DNA of 50,016 bases from Candidatus Peregrinibacteria bacterium CG10_big_fil_rev_8_21_14_0_10_42_8 (GCA_002772815.1 PFDQ01000043.1:15955-65970); one strand, 5' to 3'. Shown: positions 6,088-40,613, numbered from the stretch's first letter. Notes: generated by a model not told the origin, from the letters alone. Program-made: numbers and translations.

Positions 6088-6201
6088 AGAGTAGGATAAT
6101 AATACAGTATTTGAAGTTATGCAGTTGGAATTTCTCATGAAATGTAGTCCTGATTATAATTTCCTATGCACAGGAGAATTTTTCTCTGCTATGCTCGAAA
6201 C

Positions 6202-7791: not shown

Positions 7792-8547
7792 ATGAAGATA
7801 AACGCAGATACCACTCTTCTTTGGGAGATTACAAAATCAAATTTTAAACTGCAAAATGAAAGTAGTGCATTGGGTATTATTTGGTATCTCCTCGGGCCAT
7901 TGTTGCTTTTTGGAATCATGCTCTTTGTCTTTTCGCACAGACTTGGGTCTGATGTCGATAAATATCCACTCTACTTGTTGATGGGTATTATCACATGGAA
8001 TTTCTTCTCTACAGGTGCAGGGAGATGCATGACAACAATTACTGGTAATGCAAGCCTTATTAAATCTATCCCTATTCGCATAGAAATTTTAATAATAGCT
8101 GCAATTTTTCACGCACTCATTACGCATTCTATTGAAATATTCCTATTTCTTGCACTCCTTCTCTTATCAGGGATTATTCCTATTCTTATCCCTCTTTATC
8201 TTATTGTACTCGTTATCAGTTTTATTTTTACGATTGGAGTCGGCTTTGCACTATCTGCAACATTCGTCATATTTCGTGATGTGCAGCAAATTTGGTCTGT
8301 TATAACGCGTGCATGGTGGTTTGCTACCCCAATTTTTTATGTGCCAACAACAACAGGTCTCGGAAGTAAGCTCAGCTTGTTTAATCCACTCTATTATAGT
8401 ATTCATCTTTCGCGCGAATTGCTGATATACAACCGTATTCCGCCGCTCTATCTCTTCGTAATTTTTTTCGGGATGTCGCTGATATCATTACTACTAGGGT
8501 ATTATATTTTTCGTAAGCTACAGCCTAATTTTGTCGCACTTATATGA
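7792..8547 (+). CDS. ABC-2 type polysaccharide/glycopolymer export permease (Wzm/TagG-like)
   Basis: 251 aa with about 6 TM segments. ATGA overlap with the downstream ATPase gene. Sits in a glycosyltransferase neighbourhood. Confidence 0.75.
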   Translation: MKINADTTLLWEITKSNFKLQNESSALGIIWYLLGPLLLFGIMLFVFSHRLGSDVDKYPLYLLMGIITWNFFSTGAGRCMTTITGNASLIKSIPIRIEILIIAAIFHALITHSIEIFLFLALLLLSGIIPILIPLYLIVLVISFIFTIGVGFALSATFVIFRDVQQIWSVITRAWWFATPIFYVPTTTGLGSKLSLFNPLYYSIHLSRELLIYNRIPPLYLFVIFFGMSLISLLLGYYIFRKLQPNFVALI

Positions 8548-9308
8548 GTACTACGCCTGCAATTTTCGTTGAAAATGTATACAAAGATTTCTGGGTACAT
8601 GCTCGCACAGATGCAACTATACTTTCACGTATAGCAGATGCGTTTCCCTCTGGAGGAAAACGGCTTCATTCTCGTAAAATAGAAGCAGTTCGTAATGTCA
8701 GTTTTGCACTCGATCGTGGAAAAGTACTTGGGATTATAGGAAAGAATGCAGCAGGAAAAAGTACACTTCTAAGGCTTATAGCAAATATTTACGAGCCAGA
8801 CGCAGGAACAGTGATTGTCGATGGAACAATTACCTCTCTCATCAGTCTAAGTGTAGGGCTAAGGCCAACACTCAGTATTATCGATAACATTTATCTCGCT
8901 TGTTCATTATTTGGTATGCCACGATCACACATAAAAAAGGTTTACCCACAAATATTAGAATTTGCAGGTATTACAGATGCATGTATGTATCCGTATCAGC
9001 TTTCTACAGGGATGAACCAACGCTTGTCATTTTCCATTGCGGTTCATACAAAGCCAGAAATTCTTTTACTCGATGAAATATTCTCAGCAGGTGATATTGC
9101 GTTTCAATCGAAGGCACAACAGCGAATGGAGGAGCTTATAAAGGGTGATACTACTGTCGTTATGGTAAGCCATAGTATAGAGCGAATACGAGAATTAAGT
9201 GACGTTGTACTATGGTTAGAAGCAGGAAGTGTAAAAATGATTGGAGAGCCAAAAGAGGTAATACATGCATATATTGTAAGTATGCAGAGAGAGTTGATTG
9301 CCAAATAA
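8544..9308 (+). CDS. ABC transporter ATP-binding protein (Wzt/TagH-like, short form without a C-terminal carbohydrate-binding domain)
   Basis: Walker A GKNAAGKST, signature LSTGMNQRL, Walker B LLLDE. 254 aa. Confidence 0.85.
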   Translation: MSTTPAIFVENVYKDFWVHARTDATILSRIADAFPSGGKRLHSRKIEAVRNVSFALDRGKVLGIIGKNAAGKSTLLRLIANIYEPDAGTVIVDGTITSLISLSVGLRPTLSIIDNIYLACSLFGMPRSHIKKVYPQILEFAGITDACMYPYQLSTGMNQRLSFSIAVHTKPEILLLDEIFSAGDIAFQSKAQQRMEELIKGDTTVVMVSHSIERIRELSDVVLWLEAGSVKMIGEPKEVIHAYIVSMQRELIAK

Positions 9309-9334: not shown

Positions 9335-9949
9335 ATGGATAATCAATCAAACATTCAGCATCTCATCACTGGCACAGGAAGGTCTGGAACGACATTTTTA
9401 GCGCATGTATTGTACAATGCAGGGCTGGATTTCGGAGATAGTTCTCCAGTAAGTATCGGAGCAGTAGGAGATCCTATAGGGGGCGGAATGGAGTTGGCGA
9501 CATTTGCACATCTCAATACAAAATTGATGTATGACATGAACCATTTTCCCTTAAAAGAAGTTATTGAAAGCAATAGTGAATCTATGCAAGAGCAATGGCC
9601 ACAATACATGAAAGATCCACGTTATCTTATAACATGGCCAATATGGGAGAAAATTGGCATACGACCAAGGCACATATTTTTTTGTACAAGAATTCCTGAA
9701 AGCACAAATCAGTCCATTAATCAGACAACAAATTGGAATATAGAAAATCCTTCTGTGCTGTATATGCATTTCTATAAGTGTTTGTTATATGTCCTAGAAA
9801 AAGATATTAGCCATACATTCGTGCATTATCCGCGTATTGCAAAAGATAAGGAATATGCAGAGAAAACATTAGGTGCATTTATAAAAGATCCTTGGCCTAT
9901 TATTCAACAGACTTGGGACGATTCATTGCATCATTTTAAGTCAGAGTAG
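9335..9949 (+). CDS. Putative stand-alone sulfotransferase
   Basis: An internal ATG was chosen. A 5'-PSB-like loop GTGRSGTTFL (no Lys, so unlike kinase P-loops) and a 3'-PB-like TRIPESTNQS. Confidence 0.5.
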   Translation: MDNQSNIQHLITGTGRSGTTFLAHVLYNAGLDFGDSSPVSIGAVGDPIGGGMELATFAHLNTKLMYDMNHFPLKEVIESNSESMQEQWPQYMKDPRYLITWPIWEKIGIRPRHIFFCTRIPESTNQSINQTTNWNIENPSVLYMHFYKCLLYVLEKDISHTFVHYPRIAKDKEYAEKTLGAFIKDPWPIIQQTWDDSLHHFKSE

Positions 9950-11057
9950 TAAGTAGGTTGTTATAATTCTCTAACATTCGTTCTTGTGAAAATAGTGACG
10001 ACACTCGTTTTTGAGCATTACGCCCAAGCAGATCGCGAAGTTCTTTATTCGTCAGAAGTGTATACAGGTTGCCTGCGAGCTGTGAAGAATTGCCAGATAA
10101 ATGAAGTAATCCACTTTCGTTATGAATTATTTGTTCGGCAATGCCGTAGCAGTTACTTGCAGCTATTGGTAGTCCGCATGCCATTGCTTCAAGGATGACA
10201 AGTGGAAAAGATTCGATAAAAGAGTTACACACATAGATGTCACTGCATGCATAGTATTCAAATGGATCTTTTTGCTCTGGAAGCACATGGAATCGATCAA
10301 TCATCCCAGAGTCCTTTGCTGGCTTTAGTGCTTCTTCAAAGTATTGCGCATATTCTGGGTGTAGTTTACCAGCAATAAGAAAATGAGCATTACAGTCTCG
10401 TGGCAGTTTTTCAAGAGTCTCAAGAGCGGCGAGTATGAATTCTTTTTGGCCCTTACGTGGGCAGATAGATCCAATCAAAGTACTGACGAGTGCAGTGTCG
10501 GATATGCCAAACTGTTGTCGTAGTGATGCAGTATTATACTGCTGCATTTTTTGCTGAATACCATCGATATCAATGCCGTTATGTATCATATGCATGTTTC
10601 CTGTATTCCATTGTGTATATACTTTTTTTGTATAGTCAGAGACAAAGACAATTGCCGAGACCAGTGCAAAGGTATCCGGTGTGATATACGGGTTATTTCT
10701 CATAATCTCATGGCATTCAGACTCCTGAATTATCCATATAATATTTTCCGCGTCTGGACGCTCTGTATGTAATAGCTGAATGATACGAGCACCAAGAAGT
10801 GTACTGACAACAATGAAATCAGGATTGTGAGACGTAACACCTGGTTCAAGCACAGAGGAGTCAGCATCGTTGCTATATAGCAATGGATCGACATGAGTTG
10901 GAATGTCCGCTTCAGCAGCGAGTTTTCGTAATGGACCATTGCTTGGCATAAATAATTCGACAGTGTGACCTTCTCTCTGAAAGAGCATGGCAATATGCAA
11001 TATGTGCAAAGGAGCCCCTTCGAGTTCGGCGTTATGGGAGCAGAAAGCAATGTGCAT
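9936..11057 (-). CDS. Glycosyltransferase family 4 (GT-B)
   Basis: N-terminal NAELEGAPLHILHIA and C-terminal ESFPLVILEAMACGLPIAAS (Glycos_transf_1 signature). The 3' end overlaps the convergent gene by 14 nt. Confidence 0.85.
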   Translation of the reverse strand: MHIAFCSHNAELEGAPLHILHIAMLFQREGHTVELFMPSNGPLRKLAAEADIPTHVDPLLYSNDADSSVLEPGVTSHNPDFIVVSTLLGARIIQLLHTERPDAENIIWIIQESECHEIMRNNPYITPDTFALVSAIVFVSDYTKKVYTQWNTGNMHMIHNGIDIDGIQQKMQQYNTASLRQQFGISDTALVSTLIGSICPRKGQKEFILAALETLEKLPRDCNAHFLIAGKLHPEYAQYFEEALKPAKDSGMIDRFHVLPEQKDPFEYYACSDIYVCNSFIESFPLVILEAMACGLPIAASNCYGIAEQIIHNESGLLHLSGNSSQLAGNLYTLLTNKELRDLLGRNAQKRVSSLFSQERMLENYNNLLTTLT

Positions 11058-11115
11058 ACAAAGAGTGGAATTGGCTACTGATTATACAGCATATGTAGAG
11101 TATTCTGATACTCCA

Positions 11116-12240
11116 ATGCCAAAAAAAACTCTTACATACGTCAGTCACGAGGCATCCCGCACAGGAGCGCCCCTATTTTTGTATAATGCATTATCTCGAA
11201 TGAATCCCATAGATTGGGATCAGCAGGTCCTGCTATTGCGCGATGGTTCTCTTAAAAAGAGTTTTGCAGATTTGCATCCTACAAGGGTCTATAAAGAGTT
11301 TTGGTGGAAAGCCTTATGTCATACAAAGAAAACACCAGATCTGTATTACCTAAACTCTCATTCATATAGTTTTTTACATCAAGCACAGCAGGAAGGTGTT
11401 CCTGCTCTATGTCATGTCCATGAGGTACCACTATCATTTGCACACGAGTCTCCAGAAACACTAGAACTCCTTCGTACGTATCCATTGTCTTATCTTGCAG
11501 TATCGCGGTATGTAGAAAATATGCTTGTGTCGATGGGTATTGAACGAAAGAAAATTCGATATTGCCCCTCAGGAATAGATGTTGTGCATTGGAAGAGGCG
11601 TTCATCTGGTGAAAAATTGCGACACAAGATCGGTATACCATCTGATGCGATAGTTATCGGTATGTCAGGACAGGTAGTTTCACTGAAGGGAGTCGATATA
11701 TGGATAGAAATGGCAAAGATGCTTACAAAAAATCATCCTGAGAAGAAGTGGCATTTTGTATGGGTAGGCGGTGTATCAAAATATGAACCAGATTATCTAC
11801 AGATGATGCAGCAAGAAGTACAAGATGCAGGGTTATCACAATGTATTCACTTTGTTGGAGAGCAGCGTGATCCGAGATCATATTACGAAGTCTTTGATAT
11901 CTTTACGCTTACATCGCGCATGGAGTCGCTTAGCTTGGTCTGCCTAGAAAATGCAATGATGGGCACACCTGTCATTGCGTTCAGTGCTGCAGGGGGACCA
12001 CAGGAGTTTGGGAATCACGGATTTGTAGAACTCGTACAAGATATGAATGCACAGTTCATGGTAAATGCTGTGTTATCCATGCATGAAGATTTAAAAAGGC
12101 AGCGAGAGCTACAGGAAAAGGCAGCAATAATTATCCCACAGATGTATTCCATTGATACATCAGTGTCGACGATGAAAGATGAGATACAACGTGTATTTAG
12201 CGACGTACAGTTGTTGAAAATGCATTGTGATGAATACTAA
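11116..12240 (+). CDS. Glycosyltransferase family 4 (GT-B)
   Basis: Internal ATG 11116 was chosen so that it diverges from 11057. HEASRTGAPLFLYN and ESLSLVCLENAMMGTPVIAF. Confidence 0.8.
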   Translation: MPKKTLTYVSHEASRTGAPLFLYNALSRMNPIDWDQQVLLLRDGSLKKSFADLHPTRVYKEFWWKALCHTKKTPDLYYLNSHSYSFLHQAQQEGVPALCHVHEVPLSFAHESPETLELLRTYPLSYLAVSRYVENMLVSMGIERKKIRYCPSGIDVVHWKRRSSGEKLRHKIGIPSDAIVIGMSGQVVSLKGVDIWIEMAKMLTKNHPEKKWHFVWVGGVSKYEPDYLQMMQQEVQDAGLSQCIHFVGEQRDPRSYYEVFDIFTLTSRMESLSLVCLENAMMGTPVIAFSAAGGPQEFGNHGFVELVQDMNAQFMVNAVLSMHEDLKRQRELQEKAAIIIPQMYSIDTSVSTMKDEIQRVFSDVQLLKMHCDEY

Positions 12241-15200
12241 GGGAGAAGTGCGGATTATAATATGGATCATGTCCAAACATGTGTCCCCACTTATTTTCAA
12301 AAGCGATAATTTCTTCTCTTTTCACGTTGGCACCGAGACCACCATTATTACCTCTGGTAGCAGATTCATGATGAATAACCGATGATAGTGGATTACACAC
12401 AACACGATAGCCTTCTTGTTGTACGCGTAGGCAGTAGTCTACATCTCCAAAATCAACACCAAATTTATGTTCATCAAGCCCTCCAATATCAGAAAAGAGT
12501 TTTCTTCGTGTAAGAAGACATGCACCGCCAATAGCAGAGCAATTTCGCAACACGTAGTTGTAGTTTTCGTATCCAAGTGCATCTTTTGTATCAACTTGTA
12601 CAAGACTTGCCCAGTTTCTACCAATAATCATGCCAATACTCTGTACACGATATATATCATGTTGAGGGGGGTAGAGTAGTCTTGATCCAACAACGCCAAT
12701 CCTCGTATCAAGTAACATGGTTCCAACCAACGTGGTCAACCAATGAGGATCGGCAGGCTCTGTATCGTTATTAAGAAGAAGAATAAATTCTCCTGTTGTA
12801 CGAGCCACTACTTCGTTGTTGATGTGTGCAAAGTTAAATGCAGGAGTGTCTATCCGTATGACTTGTTCAGGGATAGAGTCGAGGTATGCTTGTGTTTTTG
12901 GCTCGGTGCTATTGTTATCAATAATAACAATCTCATAGTTTGGGTAATCTGTTTTTGTACGAATGGTATTGATACAGTGGTGCAGAAGATCAATCCTATC
13001 TTTTGTTGGAATAATAATAGTTACTTTAGAACATTGTGCTTTAGTCGGAGTATAGAAAATTTGGAAGAAGAGTGTATGGCTCTTTATAGATTCTTCAGGA
13101 CGAATAACTGTGCAAGAAATACGGCGTCGTTTTAGGCATTGTTCGATAACATTCTTTGTTTCATTTTCGAAAGATGGTTCCTGTAGAGGGTCTCCATAAT
13201 AGTGATACAGAATCTCTGGAATATGGATAACATGATGAGTTCCATCAGCAAGATGAAGGAGAATATCATGCGTGTAGGCATCGCTCTGGAGGTGATCATT
13301 AAGAAGAAATGGTAAAAGAGTTTCTCTCTGAACAATAAAGAAAGGGCGGATATAATTAAATGAGAGTAAGAGCTCTGGGCTCCAGTCTGGCTTATAAATA
13401 GGCGAGTATTGAGGTGCACCTCGATGTAGACACTCGTCATGGTCACTGTATATCGCATCTGGAAGTTCTGCCTCTTCACATGCGGCAGACATCATCGTTG
13501 CAAGAGTATGTGGCAACAAGCAGTCTTCTATGCGTAAAAAACCAATGTACATTTCCGTTGATCGACGGACGATGGATGCGCGTGTTTCTGATGTATAGAA
13601 GAATGTATGCGGGAAATCTGCAGAGTACTCCTGTATGACGTTTTGCAGTATTTCACCAGATTTTGATGCATCCAGAACAGTAACTTTCCACTCAATATAC
13701 GTTTGTTGCGTAAGAGCGTTTAAGCATTGTCGTAATTGTATTTCATCAAAATGACGCACAGGAAGTAAAAGATGAAGTGACGGCTGAAATAGCATTTGGC
13801 GTATTGCAAGGCGGCTAGCCTCTTGTTCTGCATGGGAAAAAAAATGGGTTGGCAAATAAGACTTCTGTAATGGTTCTCGAGTGTTAGGTGAGTGAACAGG
13901 CCATATTTTTCCAAGAATCCTGTGGCGGATAAACACTGCAGCGCCTGGGAATGGCTCTCCAAAGTCTGTCCATAAGTCTTTTAAGCAACTAAAAACATAG
14001 TACGCAGCTTTTTTCCGAGCTGGCGCACTGACGCGAGGAACAATTGGCTCTGGTGCAGTAAGGATTGGTGTCGTGACACCTTCTTGCAGGGCATGAACTG
14101 CAGTTGTAGATTTGCAAAATGCCTTTTTACTCCATGTTTTTTGTAGTGGTCTCTGAAGAATCTGTTCTAATTCTAGAATACCTGGAAGATATATGTCATA
14201 GAGCTTTTGAAGTTCATCTTCAGTGGTAATAGGAAGAATGGTTTTTCCTGTAGCACTGTTATTATTCATATGTGCATAGACAATGCCATTGATATGAGTA
14301 CGTGTGGTACCTCGAAAGACTGTCGAGAGATCTTCTGGAATAATATCGGGGTGTGTGGTTCCAAGAAATGTGTGAACATTATGTAGTGTTTCAGCTGGAT
14401 GTTGGAAAATATCTTCTTCAAGAATAACGACATGAATGTTTTCTTTTGGGAACCATCGAAGCCATTCCTGTAAATGCGATGCATAGAATCCCATATGAAT
14501 AATGCCATGTCGTTTTGCGGTTTCAGCAAAATTCCCAGTATGTACTAACGATCCATGGTGAAGATGATGACAATACGCAGAAAGAGCACGCATGACAGGA
14601 TGACGTAGAGATAGGACAATTTTTGTTTCTTTCCCAAGTACATCATATACATACTTAGGTGTCATAGGGTTTGGTTTCTGTAGCCCTACGTACCATTCTT
14701 GATGTGTAGTACTCGTCCAAAAATAGCTTGCCGTCTTTTCTCCAATAACTGGTTCTTCTTTTTGTTGTGAGAAATACGTTTTGCTGTAGTTATCAATATC
14801 GCGTGATGAGGGTGCCCTATTCTTCGAGAAGAATTCACATTCTGGCTGTGTTGGAAGATAGATATCAGGATGATGCGATAAGTTTTTCCATAACCATGTA
14901 CTCCCACATTTTTGTCCGCCAATAATAAGGAAATTAGGAAGTTTTTGAACTGGGGCAATAGGCTCTGGTTTTGGAAATTTTTCGTAAAGATTCTGATACC
15001 AATCAGAGACAGTCTGTATATCTGGCAATTGCATCGCATCAATTTCTCTGCAAAGACTGTCGTGCATTGATGCGGTGATAGTATGCACTATTGTATGAAC
15101 AATTTCTTGAGGGTCTTTATTCTGCAGAATAATTCCACCACCATGTTTCTGTATTCGCTCCGCTAATGCACCGCTATTTGTTACACAGACAGGAATACGC

Positions 15201-17008
15201 ATTCGAAAGCATTCAGAGAGTGTATAACTGTATGTCTCTGGCCAATTAGGAAAAAGGCAGACTAGCCGTGGTGCGATGCAATGTAAGATTGCAGGAAGTT
15301 CTTCTTGTGTGTATTTGCTAAAAAAATGGACATGAGGATTATGTGCCAATTCTGGCCATTCAGACTCTAATGTTCCAAGAAAATAGATATCAACACCTTC
15401 TTTTATGAGAAGTGGTAGAACAGATGCAATAAGAGCTTTACCCTTATGATCTGCGTGAACATAGCCAAGAAAACAAATACGATTGTTATGGTATTGCTGA
15501 ACTTGTGCATACGGCGGTATTTTTTCTGTTCCATGTTCTTGGATAAGACATCGATCCTGTACAAAGGGGAATATCTTGGCAAATGTATCTCGTGCAGTCT
15601 GCGAGGGTGCAACAAAGGTACCTACGTGCTCAAGCAGTGGATAGACATCTTGTTGCCATTGTTCATATGTTTTTGTGGGGTCGCTCGGACACGTCGTATT
15701 TCCTGATGGTATACCAAGGAATTCTCCATTTTGGAGGAGTTGCGGTGAGCCAATCGCGTAATAGTCATGAATAGAATAGACGACTGAAATGCCACATGAT
15801 TTTGCAGCTTCTATGAGAGAAAAATTACTTCCAATAAGCTGATGAATATGAAGAACGGAAATGCGCTTGCTCATAAGAAATTCTTTGAATTCTCGTAAGC
15901 TTTCCTGTGGCGCCTTCGTTATGTATGTACCTATAGAGATAGATTCAACATCTTTGAGTTCCGAGTTCTGAAATTCAGATACAGCGAGATGGTCGCTCCC
16001 TGACGGATACAGTAAGTAATGTGTAGTGTCACTCATCGATAGGATAAGGTCTTCCACATGTTTTTCTGTGCCACCCACTTTTATACTTCGTGGAGAATTA
16101 TGCAAAATATGTGCCACGGTACATGGAGATTGTTCTTCTAGTAGGTTTTTAGCAATTGCATCAACTCTATGACGAATAGTATCGAGCCGTGTGTCATTAC
16201 GAATAAATGACTCTACAATATTCCGATACTCTGAATGCATTGCTTGGAGCAATTCTTCATGCGAAGGAATAGAGCGAGCTTCTCGTGAAGGAATATCTCC
16301 ACTGAGCGACATAGATACACCTCCTTCATGGAAAACAAATGTGCTTTCATCAAGGTAGTGTGTGAATCCTGCACTTCTTGCTCTCATACACCAGTCGTTT
16401 TCTTCACCGTATCCGCGTCCAAAAATTTCGTTAAATACGCCAACGATAGCGCGTGCTTTCCATGGAATATACATACAAAAGCCTACAGCAGTTGGAATAG
16501 TCAGTAGCGTCGTGCTTTTTGATAGCGCAATGTTCTGTGCAAGATTTTCAAGTAATCTCTTTTCTTTTAATGCAATTGCATCATTTTGGGCAACAGAGTA
16601 AATAGATGCCTCATTTGAAAGAGGGGTAATACTCCCTGCATCGGGGTGAGCTGTAGCAAGTGTAGATAAACGCTCTATCCATCCATCGTAAACGATTGTA
16701 TCACTATTAAGGAGTACAACATCTTGTCCTCTTGTCTGGGAAAAGCCATAGTTTACCGCTTGCACAAAGCCTACATTCTGTTCGAGTGTGATGAGGTGTA
16801 CACGATGTGGATACTCTCGCTGTACTGCAGAAAGATACATGCCAATTTCAGGATCGGTACTTGCATCATCAATGAGAACAATTGTGCAATGATCATTCTT
16901 GGTGGTATGTAAGAGGCTCTCAATACATGCATGCACATACGTAAATGCATTATGTATAGGAATAATGATGCTTATCATTTTGCCTGTAGATTCCGAATAT
17001 TTCTGCAT
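12197..17008 (-). CDS. Giant five-module enzyme: GT2 - GT4-like - sulfotransferase - GT2 - GT2 (1603 aa)
   Basis: Five modules are recognisable. GT2 no. 1, aa 11-235: ISIIIPIHN..LIDDASTD..LLNSDT. GT-B, aa about 295-650: WPETYSYTLSECFRMRIPVCVTNSGA. Sulfotransferase, aa about 688-950: IIGGQKCGSTWL and SLRHPVMRALS. GT2 no. 2, aa about 1075-1270: LLLPVRH..YSDHDE. GT2 no. 3, aa 1328-1560: VTIIIPTKD..IIDNNSTEP..LLNNDTE..GDVDYCLRV. Confidence 0.85.
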   Translation of the reverse strand: MQKYSESTGKMISIIIPIHNAFTYVHACIESLLHTTKNDHCTIVLIDDASTDPEIGMYLSAVQREYPHRVHLITLEQNVGFVQAVNYGFSQTRGQDVVLLNSDTIVYDGWIERLSTLATAHPDAGSITPLSNEASIYSVAQNDAIALKEKRLLENLAQNIALSKSTTLLTIPTAVGFCMYIPWKARAIVGVFNEIFGRGYGEENDWCMRARSAGFTHYLDESTFVFHEGGVSMSLSGDIPSREARSIPSHEELLQAMHSEYRNIVESFIRNDTRLDTIRHRVDAIAKNLLEEQSPCTVAHILHNSPRSIKVGGTEKHVEDLILSMSDTTHYLLYPSGSDHLAVSEFQNSELKDVESISIGTYITKAPQESLREFKEFLMSKRISVLHIHQLIGSNFSLIEAAKSCGISVVYSIHDYYAIGSPQLLQNGEFLGIPSGNTTCPSDPTKTYEQWQQDVYPLLEHVGTFVAPSQTARDTFAKIFPFVQDRCLIQEHGTEKIPPYAQVQQYHNNRICFLGYVHADHKGKALIASVLPLLIKEGVDIYFLGTLESEWPELAHNPHVHFFSKYTQEELPAILHCIAPRLVCLFPNWPETYSYTLSECFRMRIPVCVTNSGALAERIQKHGGGIILQNKDPQEIVHTIVHTITASMHDSLCREIDAMQLPDIQTVSDWYQNLYEKFPKPEPIAPVQKLPNFLIIGGQKCGSTWLWKNLSHHPDIYLPTQPECEFFSKNRAPSSRDIDNYSKTYFSQQKEEPVIGEKTASYFWTSTTHQEWYVGLQKPNPMTPKYVYDVLGKETKIVLSLRHPVMRALSAYCHHLHHGSLVHTGNFAETAKRHGIIHMGFYASHLQEWLRWFPKENIHVVILEEDIFQHPAETLHNVHTFLGTTHPDIIPEDLSTVFRGTTRTHINGIVYAHMNNNSATGKTILPITTEDELQKLYDIYLPGILELEQILQRPLQKTWSKKAFCKSTTAVHALQEGVTTPILTAPEPIVPRVSAPARKKAAYYVFSCLKDLWTDFGEPFPGAAVFIRHRILGKIWPVHSPNTREPLQKSYLPTHFFSHAEQEASRLAIRQMLFQPSLHLLLPVRHFDEIQLRQCLNALTQQTYIEWKVTVLDASKSGEILQNVIQEYSADFPHTFFYTSETRASIVRRSTEMYIGFLRIEDCLLPHTLATMMSAACEEAELPDAIYSDHDECLHRGAPQYSPIYKPDWSPELLLSFNYIRPFFIVQRETLLPFLLNDHLQSDAYTHDILLHLADGTHHVIHIPEILYHYYGDPLQEPSFENETKNVIEQCLKRRRISCTVIRPEESIKSHTLFFQIFYTPTKAQCSKVTIIIPTKDRIDLLHHCINTIRTKTDYPNYEIVIIDNNSTEPKTQAYLDSIPEQVIRIDTPAFNFAHINNEVVARTTGEFILLLNNDTEPADPHWLTTLVGTMLLDTRIGVVGSRLLYPPQHDIYRVQSIGMIIGRNWASLVQVDTKDALGYENYNYVLRNCSAIGGACLLTRRKLFSDIGGLDEHKFGVDFGDVDYCLRVQQEGYRVVCNPLSSVIHHESATRGNNGGLGANVKREEIIAFENKWGHMFGHDPYYNPHFSLSIHHNAFSTTVRR

Positions 17009-17011: not shown

Positions 17012-17908
17012 TTATTTTGTACGAAGCTTTTTGAGTAGTGATCCGAATAGTCGAAGCGGGTGAGTGAGTCTCCAGCTTGCAGTCTGTATCAAATGATTAA
17101 TAATACTCTGTAAACCTGCATTCTTAGTATGTAGGTCATTTATGACGTTTTCGAGAGTTGTATTCTCACTATGCATCTCACTCATTACTGTTTGTAATTT
17201 TGTATTTTCAGCACTGAGTTCGTTTATTGCCCTGTGTAATTCTTGATACCCTAATTGTAATTCGTGGAGTAATTGTTGCGTGGTGTGTATCTCTTTTTGG
17301 CATTCGTCATATTTGCTACAAGAAATAATATAGTCATTTGATTGTTGAGCATATTGATTCCGAAGATGCAAAAAGGATTCCTGAATAAATGCATGTGTCT
17401 TTTGTAAATTATGTAGCTCACATTTTGTGTGCCATTCTCCTCTTCTATCTTCTACAAGAGGTAAAAGTGGTTTTGTTTCAAGAGATGACAAAATAGTATT
17501 GGTATGATGGTTAGTCATAAGTAGGCCAATTCCTTTGCATCCTGCGATATCTCTATAGGAAAGTTCTAGGATAGAGTTACATATAAAGTATGCAATATGA
17601 GAATGGGCATTATGTATAACCACTAGTGGAAAATGCTCTATAAGTTCAGATTGCTCTTGGAGAAGATGGAGTTGATGAGAAATAGCTTTCCATTGATCTT
17701 CACCATCAATAAATATCATATCAATTGATGGTATAGCACTGAGTGAATCTAGTTGAGGGTTTACAATGTGGAGTTTTATAGTATGAGTACCGCAATAGGA
17801 GAGCAGTTTTTGTGTAATGTTCTGTGAATCTTTTCCAATGACGACAATGTTTTTTGGTAACATCGTAGTGCATAGTGGTTCAATGATATTGTTCCAGTGT
17901 CTATCCAT
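17012..17908 (-). CDS. Rossmann/Methyltransf_24-like N-domain (degenerate SAM motif) fused to a C-terminal coiled coil
   Basis: NIVVIGKDSQN...MIFIDGEDQW...VVIHNAH resembles a class I methyltransferase fold with a degraded motif I. The C-terminus LHELQLGYQELHRAINELSAENTKLQTVMSEMHSENTTLENVINDLHTKNAGLQSIINHL is heptad-like. Only 3 nt separate it from the giant enzyme gene. Confidence 0.6.
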   Translation of the reverse strand: MDRHWNNIIEPLCTTMLPKNIVVIGKDSQNITQKLLSYCGTHTIKLHIVNPQLDSLSAIPSIDMIFIDGEDQWKAISHQLHLLQEQSELIEHFPLVVIHNAHSHIAYFICNSILELSYRDIAGCKGIGLLMTNHHTNTILSSLETKPLLPLVEDRRGEWHTKCELHNLQKTHAFIQESFLHLRNQYAQQSNDYIISCSKYDECQKEIHTTQQLLHELQLGYQELHRAINELSAENTKLQTVMSEMHSENTTLENVINDLHTKNAGLQSIINHLIQTASWRLTHPLRLFGSLLKKLRTK

Positions 17909-18227: not shown

Positions 18228-19061
18228 TTATCGATAATCACTAATGAATGTAGGGAATTCATATGATGACATTGAAGACATCCGTTTAATCATTGGGTGA
18301 GTGGAGCCAAACTGTTCCACTAGTCTTTTTTTATGCAGAGGCCAAATCTTTGAAAATTCCCATAAGTTATGACGAGTGAGTTCATCAAACTCTTCTTCTG
18401 TCCACTGGCGATCATTGCCAATGTGGCAAGTAATGTGTTCGAAAGGTAAAAAAAGAAATTGTCTGGCATTTTTCATAATGTTTGCAGCGAGTCCTGTATC
18501 GACAGATGCAATGCCTATACAACACGTATCTTTATAAAATGCAGCGTATTGCTTTCGTGAAAAAACAAAACAGTCGTAGCCTGCACCTGGGACACCAATG
18601 CTCGACCAAATTTTTGCTAGTGTATCAAGTGGGTTAACCTCGGTAGGGTTTACTTCTCGACGGTTGATAATGATTCCATCATAGCCACTGTGAATATAGT
18701 CATGCACAACACTGTAAAAGTGTGGCATAAGTATAATGTCCATATTGGTATAGATAAGATAATCCGCAGTAGTTACTTGAAAAAGATTATCGATAATATC
18801 GTAAATGAGAGGTAGTTTTTTAGGTTTTTGCAGAGGTCGAACATTAATAATAGAACGAGTAAGGCCTGGTGCTCGCAGAAATCCTTTTGGAATAGCATTT
18901 TCATCTTCTTTATATACAGTGGCATATAGCTCTACAGTAACATCATTTTTTGCAAAATCCTGTGCGCGTAACATCGATTCACATACCAATGGCTGCACAT
19001 CTTCCAAATCCTGACGTTTTGGATTGTAAAATGGATTAACAATATGTGCAATTGATGTCAT
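18228..19061 (-). CDS. Hypothetical protein (possible GT-A-like nucleotide-sugar transferase)
   Basis: 277-aa ORF in glycan-locus context. It has a DYLIYTNMDIIL motif. No firm family recognised. Confidence 0.5.
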   Translation of the reverse strand: MTSIAHIVNPFYNPKRQDLEDVQPLVCESMLRAQDFAKNDVTVELYATVYKEDENAIPKGFLRAPGLTRSIINVRPLQKPKKLPLIYDIIDNLFQVTTADYLIYTNMDIILMPHFYSVVHDYIHSGYDGIIINRREVNPTEVNPLDTLAKIWSSIGVPGAGYDCFVFSRKQYAAFYKDTCCIGIASVDTGLAANIMKNARQFLFLPFEHITCHIGNDRQWTEEEFDELTRHNLWEFSKIWPLHKKRLVEQFGSTHPMIKRMSSMSSYEFPTFISDYR

Positions 19062-19144: not shown

Positions 19145-19429
19145 ATGCTATTAGATGACGATGATGTCACAGTATGTATATTACGAAGAAAAAATACAAT
19201 TCGCCAGTATGTAGCATGGCAATTAGACAAACAAAGGGAATCAATATTGCATGTGGACCTCGCAGAAGTAAGAGAATTTTCCGAACGTAACAATGAGTGC
19301 AATATGTGCACCAGAGTGATATTGTATTATCAATGCCAAAACAGAAGCCATTACGTCAAATTGTTAAAAATACTTCTTATGCATATTTTCTTGATCAATA
19401 GCATGTGTGTAGTACCATCAAGTCGATGA
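19145..19429 (+). CDS. Small hypothetical protein, possibly coupled to fcl
   Basis: 94-aa ORF whose stop overlaps the fcl start in an ATGA arrangement. No recognisable family. Confidence 0.3.
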   Translation: MLLDDDDVTVCILRRKNTIRQYVAWQLDKQRESILHVDLAEVREFSERNNECNMCTRVILYYQCQNRSHYVKLLKILLMHIFLINSMCVVPSSR

Positions 19430-20376
19430 GTAAGCGTATTCTTATTACAGGTGGCCACGGATTTCTTGGCACATATCTTATCGAACATTTACAAGAAAAA
19501 TATTCATCTGATTATACTCTTATAATACCTTCCCATGAGGATTGTGACATAAGAGTACAAGTAGATGTGGAGAAATTATTTCAAAACAGCAAACCAGATA
19601 TGGTTGTACATTTAGCTGCAAAAGTAGGAGGAATTGGAGAGAATCGTAGTTTTCCTGGTCAGTTATTTTATGACAACGCAATGATGGGGATGATATTGAT
19701 GGAAAGCGCAAGAAAGTATGGTGTAGAGAAGTATATTACTATTGGAACAGTATGTTCGTATCCTTCGCATACGCCAATTCCTTTCAAGGAGGATGCTCTA
19801 TGGGATGGCTATCCAGAGCCAACAAATGCGCCATATGGGATTGCCAAGAAAATGCTTCTGACACAGGCACGTGCTTACGAGCAAGAGTATGGCTTTCACT
19901 CAAATTACTTAATCCTGACCAATTTATACGGACCAAAAGATTCTATCGATTTGCAGTCATCACATGTAGTACCAGCATTGATTCGAAAATTCTGTGATGC
20001 AGTAGAAGAAGGAAAAAGAGAAGTAGTATTATGGGGTGATGGCACACCAACAAGAGATCTTCTGTATGTCACAGATGCCGTAGAAGGAATTGTATCAACA
20101 ATGCAAAATTCCATACCTCTCATGCCAATCAATATTGGATCAGGTCAAGATGTATCAATTGCACATCTTGCTACAATGATCGCAGCGATATCGGGATATA
20201 ATGGAGACATAACATGGGATACAACATATTCTAATGGCCAAATGAACAGGAGAGTGGATACATCTCTAGCAAAAGAATATTTAGACTTTCAAGCAAAGAT
20301 GCCCTTACAGGAAGGTCTAGAAAGTACAGTTGCGTGGTATAAAAAAGAGAAGTTACCGACGTCGGTAATTGTGTAG
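19426..20376 (+). CDS. fcl: GDP-L-fucose synthase (GDP-4-keto-6-deoxy-D-mannose 3,5-epimerase/4-reductase)
   Basis: MSKRILITGGHGFLG (Rossmann), VVHLAAKVGGIGEN, NAPYGIAKKM (YxxxK). Overall typical of Fcl/WcaG. Confidence 0.85.
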   Translation: MSKRILITGGHGFLGTYLIEHLQEKYSSDYTLIIPSHEDCDIRVQVDVEKLFQNSKPDMVVHLAAKVGGIGENRSFPGQLFYDNAMMGMILMESARKYGVEKYITIGTVCSYPSHTPIPFKEDALWDGYPEPTNAPYGIAKKMLLTQARAYEQEYGFHSNYLILTNLYGPKDSIDLQSSHVVPALIRKFCDAVEEGKREVVLWGDGTPTRDLLYVTDAVEGIVSTMQNSIPLMPINIGSGQDVSIAHLATMIAAISGYNGDITWDTTYSNGQMNRRVDTSLAKEYLDFQAKMPLQEGLESTVAWYKKEKLPTSVIV

Positions 20377-21369
20377 CTTTACAGTATAAAGTGTATTTTC
20401 TGGGAATTCTGGAATATGAAGTATAGGCCCCCATGTTTTGATGGATCTCATATTTGGTAGTAGTTCTGTCTGTATAACAGTGCCATACAGATTTGATGTA
20501 TGTTTTGCAATTCCAGACGTATCGTTGCCAAAATATTCTGTATGCGCAATGGTCCCAGAGATATATGTATTATTTTTAAATGCAGTCATGCTTCGCTGGA
20601 AAAAGAAGTCATCTAAGAAATCATCTTCATAAAGCATGGAAACGTATTGAGGCTCCATAGCATTAATGCATTCATGAATATGCTTTCCAAAATTATCTTC
20701 AGTGTCATACTGTATTTTCACAGATATATCCGAATGATAACGGATAAGTGGCAACGCCCTTTTTTTTTCGCTCAGGACAAGTATGTATGTCGGCTTAATG
20801 GTTTGAAGGAAAACACTATCAATGCATTGCGCAATATACCGATGAGAGTTGGCGATAATGACCACCAACATATTCACCAAAAAGTCTTTTTCTATTGATC
20901 TTTGTTTAAGACAGTGAGAGCGACAAAGAATAGGAACGGATTCTTCAATATCTTCATCTATTGAAGATGAAGAGGGTACAGGAGTTGGTACGAATTCGTT
21001 TGGTATGGTGATGTGCTGAATATCTGACACTTGTTCGAGCAATTCAGTTGCTTGCCGTAGGCTATCCGTTGGTAATCTATGGCCATTTGGAAGAATGCAG
21101 ACGTACGCACTGCTATGTGTTGGATATGTTGTTTGAAACACTACAGTTGGAAACTCTGACATGCAGGTTGCTATGTATTCATCTTTCGCTCTATACAAAA
21201 CAAAGATTTTTTTAAACGGTAGAGATTGCGTACTAACGCTATTGAGTGTGTCTGATAAGTATCTATGATTATTCCCATGAATAATAGCAATAGCATTAGA
21301 AGTTTTGGCAGTCACATATAAATCATGCTCTGTATGTACTGTCTGTGAAAAGACGGAATCATTCTTCAT
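20353..21369 (-). CDS. Hypothetical protein with two tandem degenerate GT-A(GT2)-like N-terminal modules
   Basis: The modules are AIAIIHGNNHRYLSDTLNSVSTQSLPFKKIFVL and MLVVIIANSHRYIAQCIDSVFLQTIKPTYILVL. Both lack a canonical DD/DxD motif after the beta-strand. Confidence 0.55.
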   Translation of the reverse strand: MKNDSVFSQTVHTEHDLYVTAKTSNAIAIIHGNNHRYLSDTLNSVSTQSLPFKKIFVLYRAKDEYIATCMSEFPTVVFQTTYPTHSSAYVCILPNGHRLPTDSLRQATELLEQVSDIQHITIPNEFVPTPVPSSSSIDEDIEESVPILCRSHCLKQRSIEKDFLVNMLVVIIANSHRYIAQCIDSVFLQTIKPTYILVLSEKKRALPLIRYHSDISVKIQYDTEDNFGKHIHECINAMEPQYVSMLYEDDFLDDFFFQRSMTAFKNNTYISGTIAHTEYFGNDTSGIAKHTSNLYGTVIQTELLPNMRSIKTWGPILHIPEFPENTLYTVKLHNYRRR

Positions 21370-21420: not shown

Positions 21421-22167
21421 CTATACTTTTTGCAACCACAAGCTGCCACCATGAGGATCATTCATGGATGGCAATGATTGTTGAAATTCTTCTGTATAGT
21501 GATGCGACATATACGATGAAAAACATTGAAGCGTATACTGAGGATTTTCTTTTAAGAAAGATTCGAGTATTTGTACTTCATTCCAATCGGTATTATTCCA
21601 CTCAGTTGGGTATTGAAAATTATAAAATATATCATGAAAATGAATATGTACTCCACTGCGTACAACAGGAAGGATACGATGTATCATATCAAATACGTCA
21701 CTTCCAGGAGAGTACAGATGCGATGAATCAATAAAAAGAATATCTCCTTCTCGTAGTGAGACAAAAGAAGTAAGGTCTATATTTTGAATAGGGCTTTCTA
21801 CAATAATATTTTTACAAAGGTCTGTAGGACGGCAAAACTTTTTGAGTGCAGAGGTATCAATGTCGATAAATGTACAGTTGATGTTATTGTCAAAATACTG
21901 CTCGTTTGTATCGAGGATCATACAGCTACTCATTCCACATCCAATTTCAATAATATGTGCAGGCTTCATTGTTCGGATCATACAGTGTAGTACGAGTGCA
22001 TCAGAGTAGTTGAATCGACCATTATGTTTTTTATATCGTGATTGATTGTTTTCTATACGAGAAACAATCTCTGAACAATCAATACAAGAAAAGGATTTCA
22101 AAAGTGCTAACTGCTCTGCACATCGCAGGTCTATATCGGCAAAAAGAGGTGAACACGTGGTGAGCAT
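21421..22167 (-). CDS. Class I SAM-dependent methyltransferase (Methyltransf_24-like)
   Basis: IIEIGCGMSSCMILD (motif I), ILFIDSSH, HIHFHDIF. Confidence 0.7.
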   Translation of the reverse strand: MLTTCSPLFADIDLRCAEQLALLKSFSCIDCSEIVSRIENNQSRYKKHNGRFNYSDALVLHCMIRTMKPAHIIEIGCGMSSCMILDTNEQYFDNNINCTFIDIDTSALKKFCRPTDLCKNIIVESPIQNIDLTSFVSLREGDILFIDSSHLYSPGSDVFDMIHRILPVVRSGVHIHFHDIFYNFQYPTEWNNTDWNEVQILESFLKENPQYTLQCFSSYMSHHYTEEFQQSLPSMNDPHGGSLWLQKV

Positions 22168-24437: not shown

Positions 24438-24815
24438 ATGAAAACAGGACTCTTTGTCGGGCGATTTCAACCATTTCACGATGGGCACAGAAAATGTATC
24501 GAGAAGATTCTTGAAACATGCGATAAGTGCATCGTACAAATGCGCGAAACAGAGAAGACAGAAAAAAATCCATTCGACTTCGAAAAGCGCAAAGCGATGA
24601 TTCGCGCAGCATTCCCAGATGAAAACCAAGTAGAGATCACTGCATTTTTGGACTCAGGTGCAGAACTTGCAGTCTTCATTGGTCGTGATGTTGGGTACGA
24701 GTTAATACAGCTCGACGAAAAAACAGAAAATATTTCTGCAACAGACATCCGCAAAAAACTCTACGATAACGCAGGAAAAACATACGATAAAGATGCTCAC
24801 CTTAAAGTAAAATAA
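24438..24815 (+). CDS. Minimal HIGH-motif nucleotidyltransferase (cytidylyltransferase/NMNAT-like), 125 aa
   Basis: GRFQPFHDGH (HxGH motif) and ISATDIRKK (ISxTxxR motif). TAATG overlap with cysC. Confidence 0.7.
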   Translation: MKTGLFVGRFQPFHDGHRKCIEKILETCDKCIVQMRETEKTEKNPFDFEKRKAMIRAAFPDENQVEITAFLDSGAELAVFIGRDVGYELIQLDEKTENISATDIRKKLYDNAGKTYDKDAHLKVK

Positions 24816-25306
24816 TGGCTGCACGTTTTCCAATTGTATGGCTCACAGGAAACAGTGGTGCTGGAAAAAGCACACTCGCATTCGCACTCCGTGAGAGGTG
24901 TAATGAATATGAAAATGCATCACACCCAATGGCAAGGCGCGTGGTGGTGCTTGATGGTGATGAAATGCGTGAAACAATTTCTCGTGATGAAGGGTTTAGT
25001 CCAGAGGACAGACGAAAACACAACATGCGTGTTGCAAGACTAGCCACACTGCTTCGCGATAGTGGGCATCTCGTTATTGTTGCTGTTATTGCACCGTTTG
25101 AATCTGTACGTGCAGAGCTTCAGGTTATGTGTAATCCTCTGTGGGTGTATATCAAGAGAAGTGGGCTTGGTGCTGCAGACCGTCCATACGAAGCACCTAA
25201 AAACCCAGATCTTCTTATTGATAACGACATACTCTCTATTGAGGAAGCACAAGAGATATTTGGATCCTTCCTCGAAGAGAAGATTTTGTCTGGAGCAAAG
25301 GTGTAG
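24815..25306 (+). CDS. cysC: Adenylylsulfate (APS) kinase
   Basis: IVWLTGNSGAGKSTLAFAL (P-loop), VLDGDEMR, and FSPEDRRKHNMRVARLA typical of CysC. Confidence 0.85.
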   Translation: MAARFPIVWLTGNSGAGKSTLAFALRERCNEYENASHPMARRVVVLDGDEMRETISRDEGFSPEDRRKHNMRVARLATLLRDSGHLVIVAVIAPFESVRAELQVMCNPLWVYIKRSGLGAADRPYEAPKNPDLLIDNDILSIEEAQEIFGSFLEEKILSGAKV

Positions 25307-40603: not shown

Positions 40604-40613
40604 GAATCTATAT

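Follow-up and report, generated by a model that had tools for sequence, protein, structure and literature searches.

A single gene of a Peregrinibacteria member of the CPR probably encodes a soluble cytoplasmic polymerase that builds an ABC-transporter-dependent surface glycan and sulfates the chain during its growth. The gene lies in a 50,016-nucleotide stretch of DNA (hereafter the window), and its 1603-aa product is the 'hypothetical protein COU75_03525' of NCBI, from a host which, going by the name of the NCBI record, we take to be Candidatus Peregrinibacteria bacterium CG10_big_fil_rev_8_21. From the N- to the C-terminus the protein displays a GT2 module (GT2a), a GT4 module, a PAPS sulfotransferase domain resembling the HS 3-O-sulfotransferases and two further modules of GT2 derivation (GT2b and GT2c), and a scan for transmembrane segments recovered none that was convincing (Table 1). 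The analysis shows what the domains are, which of their motifs are intact or lost, which genes make up the locus, how far these features are conserved and how the fusion came about.

Table 1. Features of the polymerase gene and its neighborhood (positions in the window)
Feature	Coordinates	Strand	Evidence and remarks
SLH-domain protein	484-1266		Within the window
Wzm-like ABC-2 permease	7792..8547	+	PF01061; six hydrophobic segments
254-aa Wzt-like ABC ATPase with just the nucleotide-binding domain	8544..9308	+	PF00005
204-aa P-loop protein	9335..9949	+	ITGxGRSGTTF and R119...S127 invariant in family alignment
Stand-alone GT4	9936..11057	-	PF00534 3e-29
Stand-alone GT4	10987..12240	+	PF00534 4.5e-21; start 11050 according to gene callers
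Whole multi-module ORF	12197..17008	-	1603 aa, uninterrupted frame; orthologs
GT2c, intact GT2	12239..13033 (aa 1326-1590)	-	Pfam and NCBIfam matches; motifs kept against 77 relatives
GT2b, degenerate GT-A (pseudo-GT2)	13184..13810 (aa 1067-1275)	-	Fold, homology, motif loss
Probably flexible linker, sulfotransferase/GT2b	13838..14104 (aa 969-1057)	-	AF2 pLDDT <50; 59%/43% identity to P0002/P0003
PAPS-type sulfotransferase, HS 3-O-sulfotransferase-like	14123..14947 (aa 688-962)	-	PF00685, PF13469, 3rnl match
GT4-type GT-B module	14969..16108 (aa 301-680)	-	PF13439 and PF13692; EX7E
Helical linker GT2a/GT4	16109..16273 (aa 246-300)	-	Without Pfam match; 67%/37% identity to P0002/P0003
GT2a, intact GT2	16274..16984 (aa 9-245)	-	PF00535; residues at least 90% conserved among 76 relatives kept
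298-aa protein, MT24-like N-terminus and C-terminal coiled coil	17012..17908	-	4 nt upstream of the polymerase gene
GDP-L-fucose-synthase-like epimerase/reductase	19405..20376	+	PF01370; NCBIfam GDPFucSynFcl 8e-78, under equivalog cut-off
Stand-alone Methyltransf_24 protein	21421..22167	-	Beside or near the polymerase gene in 4/4 loci
125-aa HIGH-family nucleotidyltransferase	24438..24815	+	PF01467 7.8e-13; GRFQPFHDGH ... ISATDIR
APS kinase (PAPS maker)	24815..25306	+	PF01583 3.7e-26; NCBIfam apsK 1e-27

The first-pass annotation of the window had placed these modules, in this order, on a single polypeptide; both the order and the coordinates hold, the Pfam ranges differing by a few tens of bases at most. 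As the source is a metagenome-assembled genome, we examined whether the long ORF might be an artefact in which separate genes were fused by frameshifts during sequencing or assembly, and found nothing in support of this. The frame contains zero internal stops, an identical protein is present in an independent Logan assembly, and collinear orthologs from three further metagenomes of differing source retain every domain junction. Two of these match the entire architecture (P0002, 1610 aa, 73% identity; P0003, 1621 aa, 58% identity), while the third (P0004) is a 961-aa protein of the form GT2-GT4-ST. Moreover, a scaffold of ~1450 aa without the sulfotransferase is present in hundreds of genomes. 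Since the protein is identical in two assemblies and occurs at full length, at 73% and 58% identity, in other metagenomes, the probability of such an artefact is vanishingly small.

Profile searches with Pfam place the sulfotransferase, GT4, GT2a and GT2c above the respective cut-offs, and GT2b below. With the whole protein as query, Glycos_transf_2 (PF00535; E=2.4e-43, 148 bits against a cut-off of 23.3) was recovered at aa 13-127 and again at the C-terminus (~1325-1550), and GT2 families of NCBIfam match aa 8-232 and 1325-1553. GT2a retains the motifs LIDDAS, NVGFVQAVN, LLNSDT and GYGEENDWCMRA, and GT2c retains IDNNS, LLNNDTE and FGDVDYCLRV; in both, the acidic nucleotide-sugar/metal motifs coincide with residues whose conservation across 76-77 relatives is 90% or higher. 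GT2c is also the best-conserved part of the protein (89%/77% identity to the orthologs). In the GT4 module the N-terminal lobe matches Glyco_transf_4 (PF13439, aa 311-483, 29.0 bits against a cut-off of 28.5) and the C-terminal lobe Glyco_trans_1_4 (PF13692, aa 509-644, 37.4 bits against 27), with its EX7E motif, PETYSYTLSE, being kept in the orthologs and in comparison with 51 relatives; the module retains the positions for which conservation in these relatives reaches 90% or more. The linker between GT2a and GT4 shows reduced conservation, and the ~90-aa linker that follows the sulfotransferase the lowest.

Three GT2 modules had been proposed in the first-pass annotation; GT2a and GT2c stand as such, but the middle one is a pseudo-GT. 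Searched alone, GT2b reaches only E=0.18 with PF00535 (12.2 bits, under the 23.3 cut-off), and a sequence search against PDB returned no match. Nevertheless, it is 28-32% identical to the true PF00535 domain of P0011, P0079 and others, its homolog in the ~1450-aa relatives is a bona fide GT2, and its model adopts a GT-A fold (AF2 pLDDT 85-95) that Foldseek matches to K4CP, RmlT, WrtF and SpsA. Three motifs, each with 90% or higher conservation across 81 relatives, are lost: LLDHDD is replaced by FLRIED, RIQD or RMEE, a DD by D1118-A1119, and QDYD by YTHD. At 75%/54% identity among orthologs, the module is conserved as well as the GT4 and sulfotransferase modules. Thus, GT2b is a GT2-derived but degenerate module, and the protein has three intact glycosyltransferase sites (GT2a, GT4 and GT2c) along with one pseudo-GT.

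The assignment of the central domain as a sulfotransferase, together with its two motifs named at the outset, is borne out by profile, sequence and fold comparisons. Sulfotransfer_1 (PF00685) matches aa 691-922 with 53-58 bits against a cut-off of 22 (1e-15 for the domain alone), and PF13469 with 37-42 bits against 27. Searches of PDB recovered 3rnl (1.5e-16) and 3-OST-3 (6e-10) at ~21-26% identity, and the model of the domain (AF2 pLDDT >90) matches 3rnl (Foldseek 2.5e-13, TM 0.76) and the HS 3-OSTs (TM 0.65-0.68). The 5'-PSB motif IIGGQKCGSTWL (aa 695-706) and the 3'-PB motif SLRHPVMRALS (aa 800-810) are conserved in all four orthologs, whose identity extends down to 45%. The same four conserve Lys700 of the PSB loop, Lys758, which lies in EKTASYF (compare EKTPSYF), Arg802 and Ser810 of the 3'-PB motif, and Glu723, which aligns with the catalytic Glu in the 'EPHFF' of HS 3-OSTs (AEPHFF in 3-OST-3). 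Glu is the catalytic base in HS 3-OST and NST (PMC11625862). The equivalent of His186 of 3-OST-3 is a Glu in three of the four orthologs (ECEFF as against ETHFF or EPHFF). On the strength of the conserved residues the domain looks catalytically competent.

Within the widespread ~1450-aa scaffold, the sulfotransferase represents an insertion specific to one clade. Its closest relatives are free enzymes of ~280 aa, and other members of its subfamily are fused to acetyltransferases, methyltransferases or single GT2s, which are fusions typical of tailoring enzymes. In the locus L004, a free sulfotransferase with 31% identity to the domain comes immediately after a 1060-aa homolog of the GT2a-GT4 region (8e-65), and this unfused pair provides a Rosetta-stone link between polymerase and sulfotransferase. 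Two Peregrinibacteria relatives, P0010 and P0033, have the layout of Klebsiella O7 ORF6, with a methyltransferase, a coiled coil and two GTs, and in P0033 the methyltransferase occupies exactly the position of the sulfotransferase.

The ABC-transporter-dependent context suggested in the first-pass annotation is likewise seen in the neighborhood: genes for Wzm and Wzt lie 3 kb from the polymerase gene, separated from it by two GT4 genes, and the arrangement of Wzm, a Wzt with only the nucleotide-binding domain and GT4 recurs in the orthologous loci L002 and L003. The best NCBIfam matches of Wzt are galactan-export Wzt/RfbE (4.5e-47) and TagH, and Pfam and NCBIfam searches recovered no C-terminal carbohydrate-binding module in its 254 aa. 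The 204-aa ORF that follows has a P-loop α/β fold rather than a β-sandwich. It has no match in Pfam or NCBIfam, and its model (AF2 pLDDT 83) recovers CurM-ST, TPST and adenylate kinases as top Foldseek hits (TM 0.45-0.54); in L008, where no other sulfotransferase is encoded, a relative adjoins an APS kinase, and the 204-aa protein is probably a second, small, unclassified sulfotransferase. The N-terminus of the 298-aa protein matches the N-terminal MT24 region of P0010 (BLASTP 2e-9); it scores no better than E=0.22 with Pfam MT24, and its SAM motif looks degenerate. Residues 160-275 of the protein match coiled-coil families, and it is a candidate ruler/terminator scaffold. No polyprenyl-phosphate initiating transferase of the WecA or WbaP type was detected among the window ORFs scanned; genes for such transferases are often unlinked.

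The APS kinase gene lies ~8 kb from the polymerase gene, is syntenic in L002 and is also present in L008. It is translationally coupled to the 125-aa nucleotidyltransferase, which matches NMN adenylyltransferases in PDB at 4e-8 and keeps its upstream position in L002 and L008. A scan of window ORFs recovered no canonical ATP sulfurylase, which leaves half of the PAPS pathway without a candidate gene.

We infer the following scheme for which acceptor is used, when sulfation takes place, what GT2b does and what kind of polymer results. GT2a, GT4 and GT2c would extend a lipid-linked chain, for which the two adjoining stand-alone GT4 enzymes probably make the primer or adaptor. The embedded sulfotransferase would use PAPS supplied by the nearby APS kinase and O-sulfate sugars of the growing chain prior to export, so that sulfation would be an in-line, co-synthetic decoration. 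GT2b, having lost its catalytic motifs but kept its fold, probably has a structural or acceptor-holding role, and Wzm and Wzt would export the finished sulfated polymer.

The main rival to this scheme is that a single sulfate on the non-reducing end halts polymerization and marks the chain for export, much as WbdD caps chains with methyl or phospho-methyl, WsaE with methyl and WbbB with Kdo. A methyltransferase is found at the same position in P0033, and methylation is a classical way of capping chains, so that the placement of the sulfotransferase by itself leaves room for a capping role. The coiled-coil protein encoded 4 nt upstream is furthermore a hallmark of terminator systems. In WsaE, where capping domain and GT modules share one polypeptide, the polymerase-fused modifying domain terminates chains (PMC2943079), as is also the case in Klebsiella O7 ORF6, WbbB and WbdD (PMC11231755). 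However, in characterized terminator systems the cap is read by the carbohydrate-binding module of Wzt (PMC11231755), which the Wzt of this locus lacks. Moreover, the sulfotransferase is wedged amid the GT modules without a coiled-coil spacer, the MT24-like coiled-coil protein and the free MT24 protein found in 4/4 loci are better suited to a terminator or ruler role, and the fusions of the subfamily resemble those of tailoring enzymes. On these grounds in-line sulfation is preferred, and a terminating sulfate appears unlikely. Still less probable is that the domain acts off the polymer, be it on the lipid-linked primer, on some other glycoconjugate or on a protein, or that it is inactive and purely structural. 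The His to Glu change in the E-x-H-F-F motif of three orthologs, the neighboring GT2b as an instance of a dead domain being tolerated, and the flexible 90-aa linker, by which the domain might gain access to other substrates, are compatible with this. Against it stand the retention of PAPS-binding and catalytic residues in orthologs only 45% identical, the retention of an APS kinase beside the locus in a reduced genome, and the fusion together with its unfused counterpart in L004, which argue for a shared substrate.

In-line sulfation would set the protein apart from known systems that are otherwise similar. Like it, E. coli O8/O9a WbdA, Klebsiella O12 WbbB and Klebsiella O7 ORF6 are soluble multi-GT polypeptides with one module per linkage, encoded next to wzm/wzt in loci that also carry separate GT genes and a gene for a coiled-coil protein. 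In contrast, they contain no sulfotransferase, their non-GT modules being capping methyltransferases, kinases or Kdo transferases, and the Wzt of this locus lacks the cap-reading module. The CPR host presumably lacks LPS, and hence the product would not strictly be an O antigen. Another parallel is the trifunctional WsaE of the Geobacillus stearothermophilus S-layer glycan, which combines a tailoring domain with two GT domains in a Wzm/Wzt pathway of a monoderm (PMC2943079); the SLH-domain protein of the window hints at a comparable envelope. Nevertheless, WsaE has as its tailoring domain a chain-capping O-methyltransferase at the N-terminus, as opposed to an internal PAPS sulfotransferase, and the GT set differs, being GT2-GT4-(pseudo-GT2)-GT2 here.

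The closest sequence and fold matches of the sulfotransferase, namely the HS 3-O-sulfotransferases, the sulfotransferase domain of NDST and 3rnl from Alicyclobacillus, share with it the PSB loop, the 3'-PB motif, EKT(P/A)SYF and the Glu base in E-x-x-F-F, whereas the domain has a Glu in place of His186 of 3-OST-3. HS 3-OSTs and NDST act on polysaccharide acceptors, and in NDST the sulfotransferase is fused to another glycan-modifying domain; however, the animal HS sulfotransferases act in the Golgi lumen after polymerization and are never fused to a polymerase. Genes for PAPS-type sulfotransferases also occur inside bacterial polysaccharide loci, such as the sulfated CPS clusters of marine Vibrio and Cobetia, Actinoplanes (WpsB/WpsH) and Aeromonas salmonicida, where a 216-aa ST-domain ORF follows wzt (PMC11641403, PMC11766843, PMC13390465, PMC4483657). 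In all of these the sulfotransferase is a separate protein, a situation resembled by the free enzyme of L004, rather than being covalently inserted between GT modules of a polymerase.

The first-pass annotation had regarded such an arrangement as not known for these enzymes. This stands insofar as a literature search for a characterized polymerase with an embedded sulfotransferase found none; it does not stand for metagenomes, where uncharacterized ST-GT fusions of other layouts are encountered (P0118, P0214 and P0245), such that the idea is rare, yet not unique at the sequence level. Thus, among bacterial polysaccharide polymerases, for which we found no experimental description of such a dual activity, the Peregrinibacteria protein would be one that both builds and sulfates the same surface sugar chain.

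The large gene is a single uninterrupted ORF encoding 1603 aa, and its product is a 100% match to the NCBI 'hypothetical protein COU75_03525' of a Candidatus Peregrinibacteria MAG; the same protein is also encoded by an independent Logan assembly. Collinear orthologues were recovered from three other, unrelated metagenomes, namely P0002 (ENA; 1610 aa, 73% identity to the query), P0003 (JGI; 1621 aa, 58%) and P0004 (ENA; 961 aa, 45%), the last of which ends just past the sulfotransferase, and the domain junctions are all kept across them. A fusion created by frameshift, which the first-pass annotation had named as grounds for rejecting its reading, or by misassembly is not borne out, being ruled out by the identical protein in the second assembly and the collinear orthologues in three other metagenomes. 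Pfam analysis of the whole protein recovered Glycos_transf_2 at aa 13-127 and about aa 1325-1550 (combined E=2.4e-43), Glyco_transf_4 at aa 311-483 and Glyco_trans_1_4 at aa 509-644 (both above the gathering score), and Sulfotransfer_1 at aa 691-922 (53 bits, the cut-off being 22), with Sulfotransfer_3 also matched. NCBIfam yielded GT2 and GT4 matches, all sub-threshold, and no equivalog. Pfam on the whole protein supports four of the five modules that had been claimed, the exception being the second GT2; the nucleotide ranges and both motifs quoted with that claim proved accurate.

The closest solved relative of the sulfotransferase domain by sequence is the bacterial sulfotransferase 3rnl (1.5e-16), with heparan-sulfate 3-O-sulfotransferases (6e-10 to 1e-7) and the NDST sulfotransferase domain as further relatives. 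Alignment to 3-OST-3 places Lys700 in the PSB loop (QKCGST vs KKGGT), Glu723 opposite the Glu of AEPHFF, Lys758 in EKTASYF (vs EKTPSYF), and Arg802 and Ser810 in LRHPVMRALS (vs VRDPVTRAIS). All these residues are kept in four of four orthologues, the sole variation being E-T-H-F-F in P0004 where the other three read E-C-E-F-F; a Glu is the catalytic base of HS3ST1 and NST (reviewed in PMC11625862). In an AlphaFold2 model of aa 681-1330, computed from an alignment of 63 sequences, the domain has a pLDDT >90, and Foldseek matches it to 3rnl (2.5e-13, TM 0.76), 3-OST-1, 3-OST-5 and NDST1. By all criteria of sequence and predicted fold it is a member of the Sulfotransfer_1/HS 3-OST-like family.

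The middle region (aa 1040-1325) on its own scored no better than E=0.18 against PF00535, and a PDB sequence search with it returned no match, so that its identity as GT2b is known only via relatives and the structural model. BLAST mapping places the query in a very large family of ~1450-aa proteins with the layout GT2a, GT4, a ~250-aa spacer, GT2b and GT2c, in which GT2b is a strong PF00535 domain (e.g. P0011 aa 877-1037). The model predicts a GT-A fold for this region (pLDDT 85-95), with Foldseek matches to K4CP, RmlT, WrtF and SpsA. Comparison with the residues conserved in at least 90% of 81 relatives revealed that the GT2b motifs are replaced: LLDHDD becomes FLRIED in the query (RIQD in P0002 and RMEE in P0003), and in the query clade A-DD-gS becomes L-DA-S and QDYD becomes YTHD. 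Identity of GT2b between orthologues (75%/54%) is nevertheless the same as that of the GT4 and sulfotransferase modules, and we conclude that GT2b is a retained pseudo-glycosyltransferase. GT2a, GT4 (with an EX7E motif PETYSYTLSE) and GT2c retain essentially all the highly conserved residues of their relatives. The protein is therefore predicted to possess three intact GT sites, rather than the four that the initial assignment of three GT2 modules and one GT4-like module would have given. The DHDD motif of GT2b has also been lost independently in other ~1450-aa members, namely P0108 (PIVAGD), P0013 (FAKGSD) and P0045 (LLGEAD), and its degeneration is thus recurrent and not tied only to gain of the sulfotransferase.

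A profile of the sulfotransferase subfamily, built from about 150 sulfotransferases, recovered only P0001-P0004, i.e. the query and its sulfotransferase-bearing orthologues (1e-91 to 1e-97), among the 120 closest multi-GT relatives, the next best of which had E=0.12. This restriction indicates that insertion of the sulfotransferase into the spacer of the ~1450-aa scaffold is, as judged from profile comparisons, specific to this clade. The same profile rules out a cryptic ancestral sulfotransferase in that spacer, which a BLAST alignment of P0079 through q937 had suggested. Searched exhaustively, a set of 1.84 billion representative proteins contained 18,716 relatives of the domain (E ≤ 0.001). 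Of the 150 best, only the query cluster and P0004 exceed 900 aa, and nearly all others are free enzymes of ~270-300 aa, up to 45% identical. In a related locus (L004) a 1060-aa GT2a-GT4 homologue (28% identity over 658 aa, 8e-65) is directly followed by a free sulfotransferase, a gene pair that represents the unfused state. In the ~550-aa relatives the fusion partner of the sulfotransferase is a hexapeptide acyltransferase, a methyltransferase, another sulfotransferase or a single GT2 (P0214, P0245). P0118 is an independent ST-GT2-GT2-GT4-GT4 fusion with a sulfotransferase of a different family, and P0033, a Peregrinibacteria relative, carries a methyltransferase in the position after GT4. These partners, swaps and the unfused pair imply that the domain behaves as a mobile glycan-tailoring module; uncharacterised sulfotransferase-GT fusions are present in metagenomes, making the concept rare, not unique.

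Principal genes of the glycan locus, with window coordinates
Feature	Coordinates	Strand	Remarks
Wzm-like ABC-2 permease	7792-8547	+	
Wzt-like ATPase, 254 aa, NBD only	8544-9308	+	best matches galactan Wzt/RfbE, TagH
P-loop protein, 204 aa	9335-9949	+	
Stand-alone GT4	9936-11057	-	
Stand-alone GT4	10987-12240	+	
Large multi-module gene	12197-17008	-	
MT24-like and coiled-coil protein, 298 aa	17012-17908	-	4 nt upstream of the large gene
GDP-fucose-synthase-like enzyme	19405-20376	+	NCBIfam 8e-78, below equivalog cut-off
Free Methyltransf_24	21421-22167	-	
Mini-nucleotidyltransferase, 125 aa	24438-24815	+	HIGH-family
APS kinase	24815-25306	+	3.7e-26

Much of this neighborhood is conserved: the homologous locus L002 is syntenic for the APS kinase, MT24 (Methyltransf_24), both GT4s, Wzm/Wzt and the small P-loop ORF, and in L003 P0004 is directly flanked by Wzm/Wzt. 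The N-terminus of the 298-aa protein is homologous to the MT24 domain fused N-terminally in Peregrinibacteria relatives (P0010), with a degenerate SAM motif (VIGKDSQ vs EIGCEDG), and is followed by a ~110-aa coiled coil and a C-terminal SWRLTHPLR tail, a layout resembling that of WbdD-type ruler/terminator proteins. The GDP-L-fucose-synthase-like enzyme hints at a polymer with a GDP-derived 6-deoxyhexose; no GDP-mannose 4,6-dehydratase was seen near its gene. A 485-aa protein (26474-27931, -) with at least nine hydrophobic segments is syntenic in L002 (L002:149-1606), has no Pfam or NCBIfam match, and bears an N-terminal 'DTKPP' motif that recalls GT-C enzymes of the ArnT/PMT type; it may act outside the cytoplasm as the ligase or transferase of the exported glycan. 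Two further conserved ORFs are a 338-aa protein (20353-21369, -) seemingly made up of two degenerate half-repeats resembling GT2 (Pfam GT2 E about 0.04-0.06) and a 277-aa protein (18228-19061, -) with no matches at all; an Rfam scan of the window found no RNA families. Around the glycan locus is a probable surface-protein cluster (484-1266, +; 2185-5295, +; 5296-6138, -; 39386-40648, -), comprising one protein with an SLH domain, one of 1036 aa with DUF4215 cysteine-rich repeats, and two with CAP domains. The presence of SLH hints at an envelope of the S-layer or secondary-cell-wall-polymer type, which may be the destination of the glycan.

The stop codon of the 125-aa nucleotidyltransferase overlaps the start codon of the APS kinase, and the pair is kept in three CPR glycan loci, i.e. 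the window, L002 (about 2908-3290, -) and the related locus L008 (about 9760-10106, +), in the latter two of which gene callers annotated the nucleotidyltransferase ORF too short. It shows the HIGH-superfamily motifs GRFQPFHDGH and ISATDIR and is closest to archaeal NMN adenylyltransferases; no canonical ATP sulfurylase or CysDN was found among the window ORFs scanned. Speculatively, it could be a minimal enzyme of APS formation, or else just an NMNAT. The 204-aa P-loop protein, encoded directly after Wzt, has no Pfam or NCBIfam match and belongs to a small family whose members, among the hits obtained, all come from CPR/Patescibacteria (also at L008:9001-9708 and, in another related locus, L009:9001-9639). 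Family members share an invariant ITGxGRSGTTF P-loop and an R-x7-S motif (R119...S127), a sulfotransferase-like PSB/PB pattern. The AF2 model of the 204-aa protein (pLDDT 83) is a P-loop alpha/beta fold for which Foldseek gives CurM-ST, TPST and adenylate kinases as top, albeit weak, matches (TM 0.45-0.54). L008 is a Wzm/Wzt locus in which no further sulfotransferase could be recognised, and there the homologue lies between an MT24-GT4 protein and the APS kinase. These features suggest that the ORF may define a new small sulfotransferase family; in Aeromonas salmonicida a 216-aa sulfotransferase-domain ORF likewise lies right after wzt (PMC4483657). That it is a detached carbohydrate-binding module of Wzt is ruled out by the modelled fold, which matches sulfotransferases and nucleotide kinases.

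In the framework of ABC-transporter-dependent glycans, there is one GT module per linkage, the terminator enzyme is placed at the distal tip of a coiled-coil ruler, and the cap is recognised by a carbohydrate-binding module on Wzt (PMC11231755). Set against this, we consider it rather probable that the sulfotransferase O-sulfates the growing lipid-linked chain in-line, in the cytoplasm, with export by Wzm/Wzt thereafter, a scheme in which the polymer and acceptor sugar, what GT2b does and where sulfate is attached are inferred; a low-confidence ~90-aa linker (aa 969-1057) may let the sulfotransferase swing relative to the GT modules. Alternatively, the sulfate might cap the chain, a real though unlikely alternative: the capping methyltransferase of WsaE shares one polypeptide with GT modules (PMC2943079), and the methyltransferase of P0033 occupies the site equivalent to the sulfotransferase. 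In-line sulfation is favoured because the domain is embedded among GT modules without a coiled coil, Wzt is devoid of a carbohydrate-binding module, the separate MT24-like coiled-coil protein could serve as ruler or terminator, and the fusion partners of the subfamily are of the tailoring type.

A more far-reaching joint reading, which we regard as decidedly improbable, is that of a self-contained sulfated surface polysaccharide pathway in a reduced-genome CPR bacterium. Here the large protein would be a single-polypeptide assembly line whose pseudo-GT2 hands the nascent chain to the embedded sulfotransferase, and the 204-aa protein would represent a second, previously unclassified ~200-aa sulfotransferase family. 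The 125-aa nucleotidyltransferase, translationally coupled to the APS kinase, would replace canonical ATP sulfurylase in a two-gene minimal PAPS module, and the product would be a bacterial glycosaminoglycan- or fucoidan-like polyanion, possibly containing 6-deoxyhexose, coating an episymbiont.

Sulfated polysaccharides are regarded as rare in bacteria, and we know of no characterised system with a sulfotransferase as part of the polymerase. WbdA, WbbB, Klebsiella O7 ORF6 and WsaE are multi-module polymerases as here, but the present protein departs from every characterised case in having a sulfotransferase as its tailoring module and in carrying it at an internal position. A recent paper still calls sulfated polysaccharides in bacteria exclusive to cyanobacteria (PMC13390465). 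In the literature searched, the sulfated bacterial CPS/O-antigen loci described have free sulfotransferases only (PMC11641403, PMC11766843, PMC13390465, PMC4483657), with no polymerase-sulfotransferase fusion and nothing dealing with CPR. Literature searches on Peregrinibacteria with sulfotransferase, and on bifunctional or fused GT-sulfotransferases, likewise yielded no relevant characterised case. Biomanufacturing of heparin and chondroitin is now limited by the coupling of polymerisation to sulfation, and an enzyme in which polymerase and sulfotransferase are naturally fused, with a gene for PAPS supply close by, would offer a compact model for making defined sulfated glycans in one pot or inside cells. 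The possible new small sulfotransferase family and the candidate minimal APS-forming enzyme are two side leads. For the organism itself, whose reduced genome still spends about 20 kb on surface-glycan chemistry, the finding predicts that the ultra-small and probably episymbiotic CPR cell wears a sulfated, polyanionic coat, which would bear on host attachment and phage defence.
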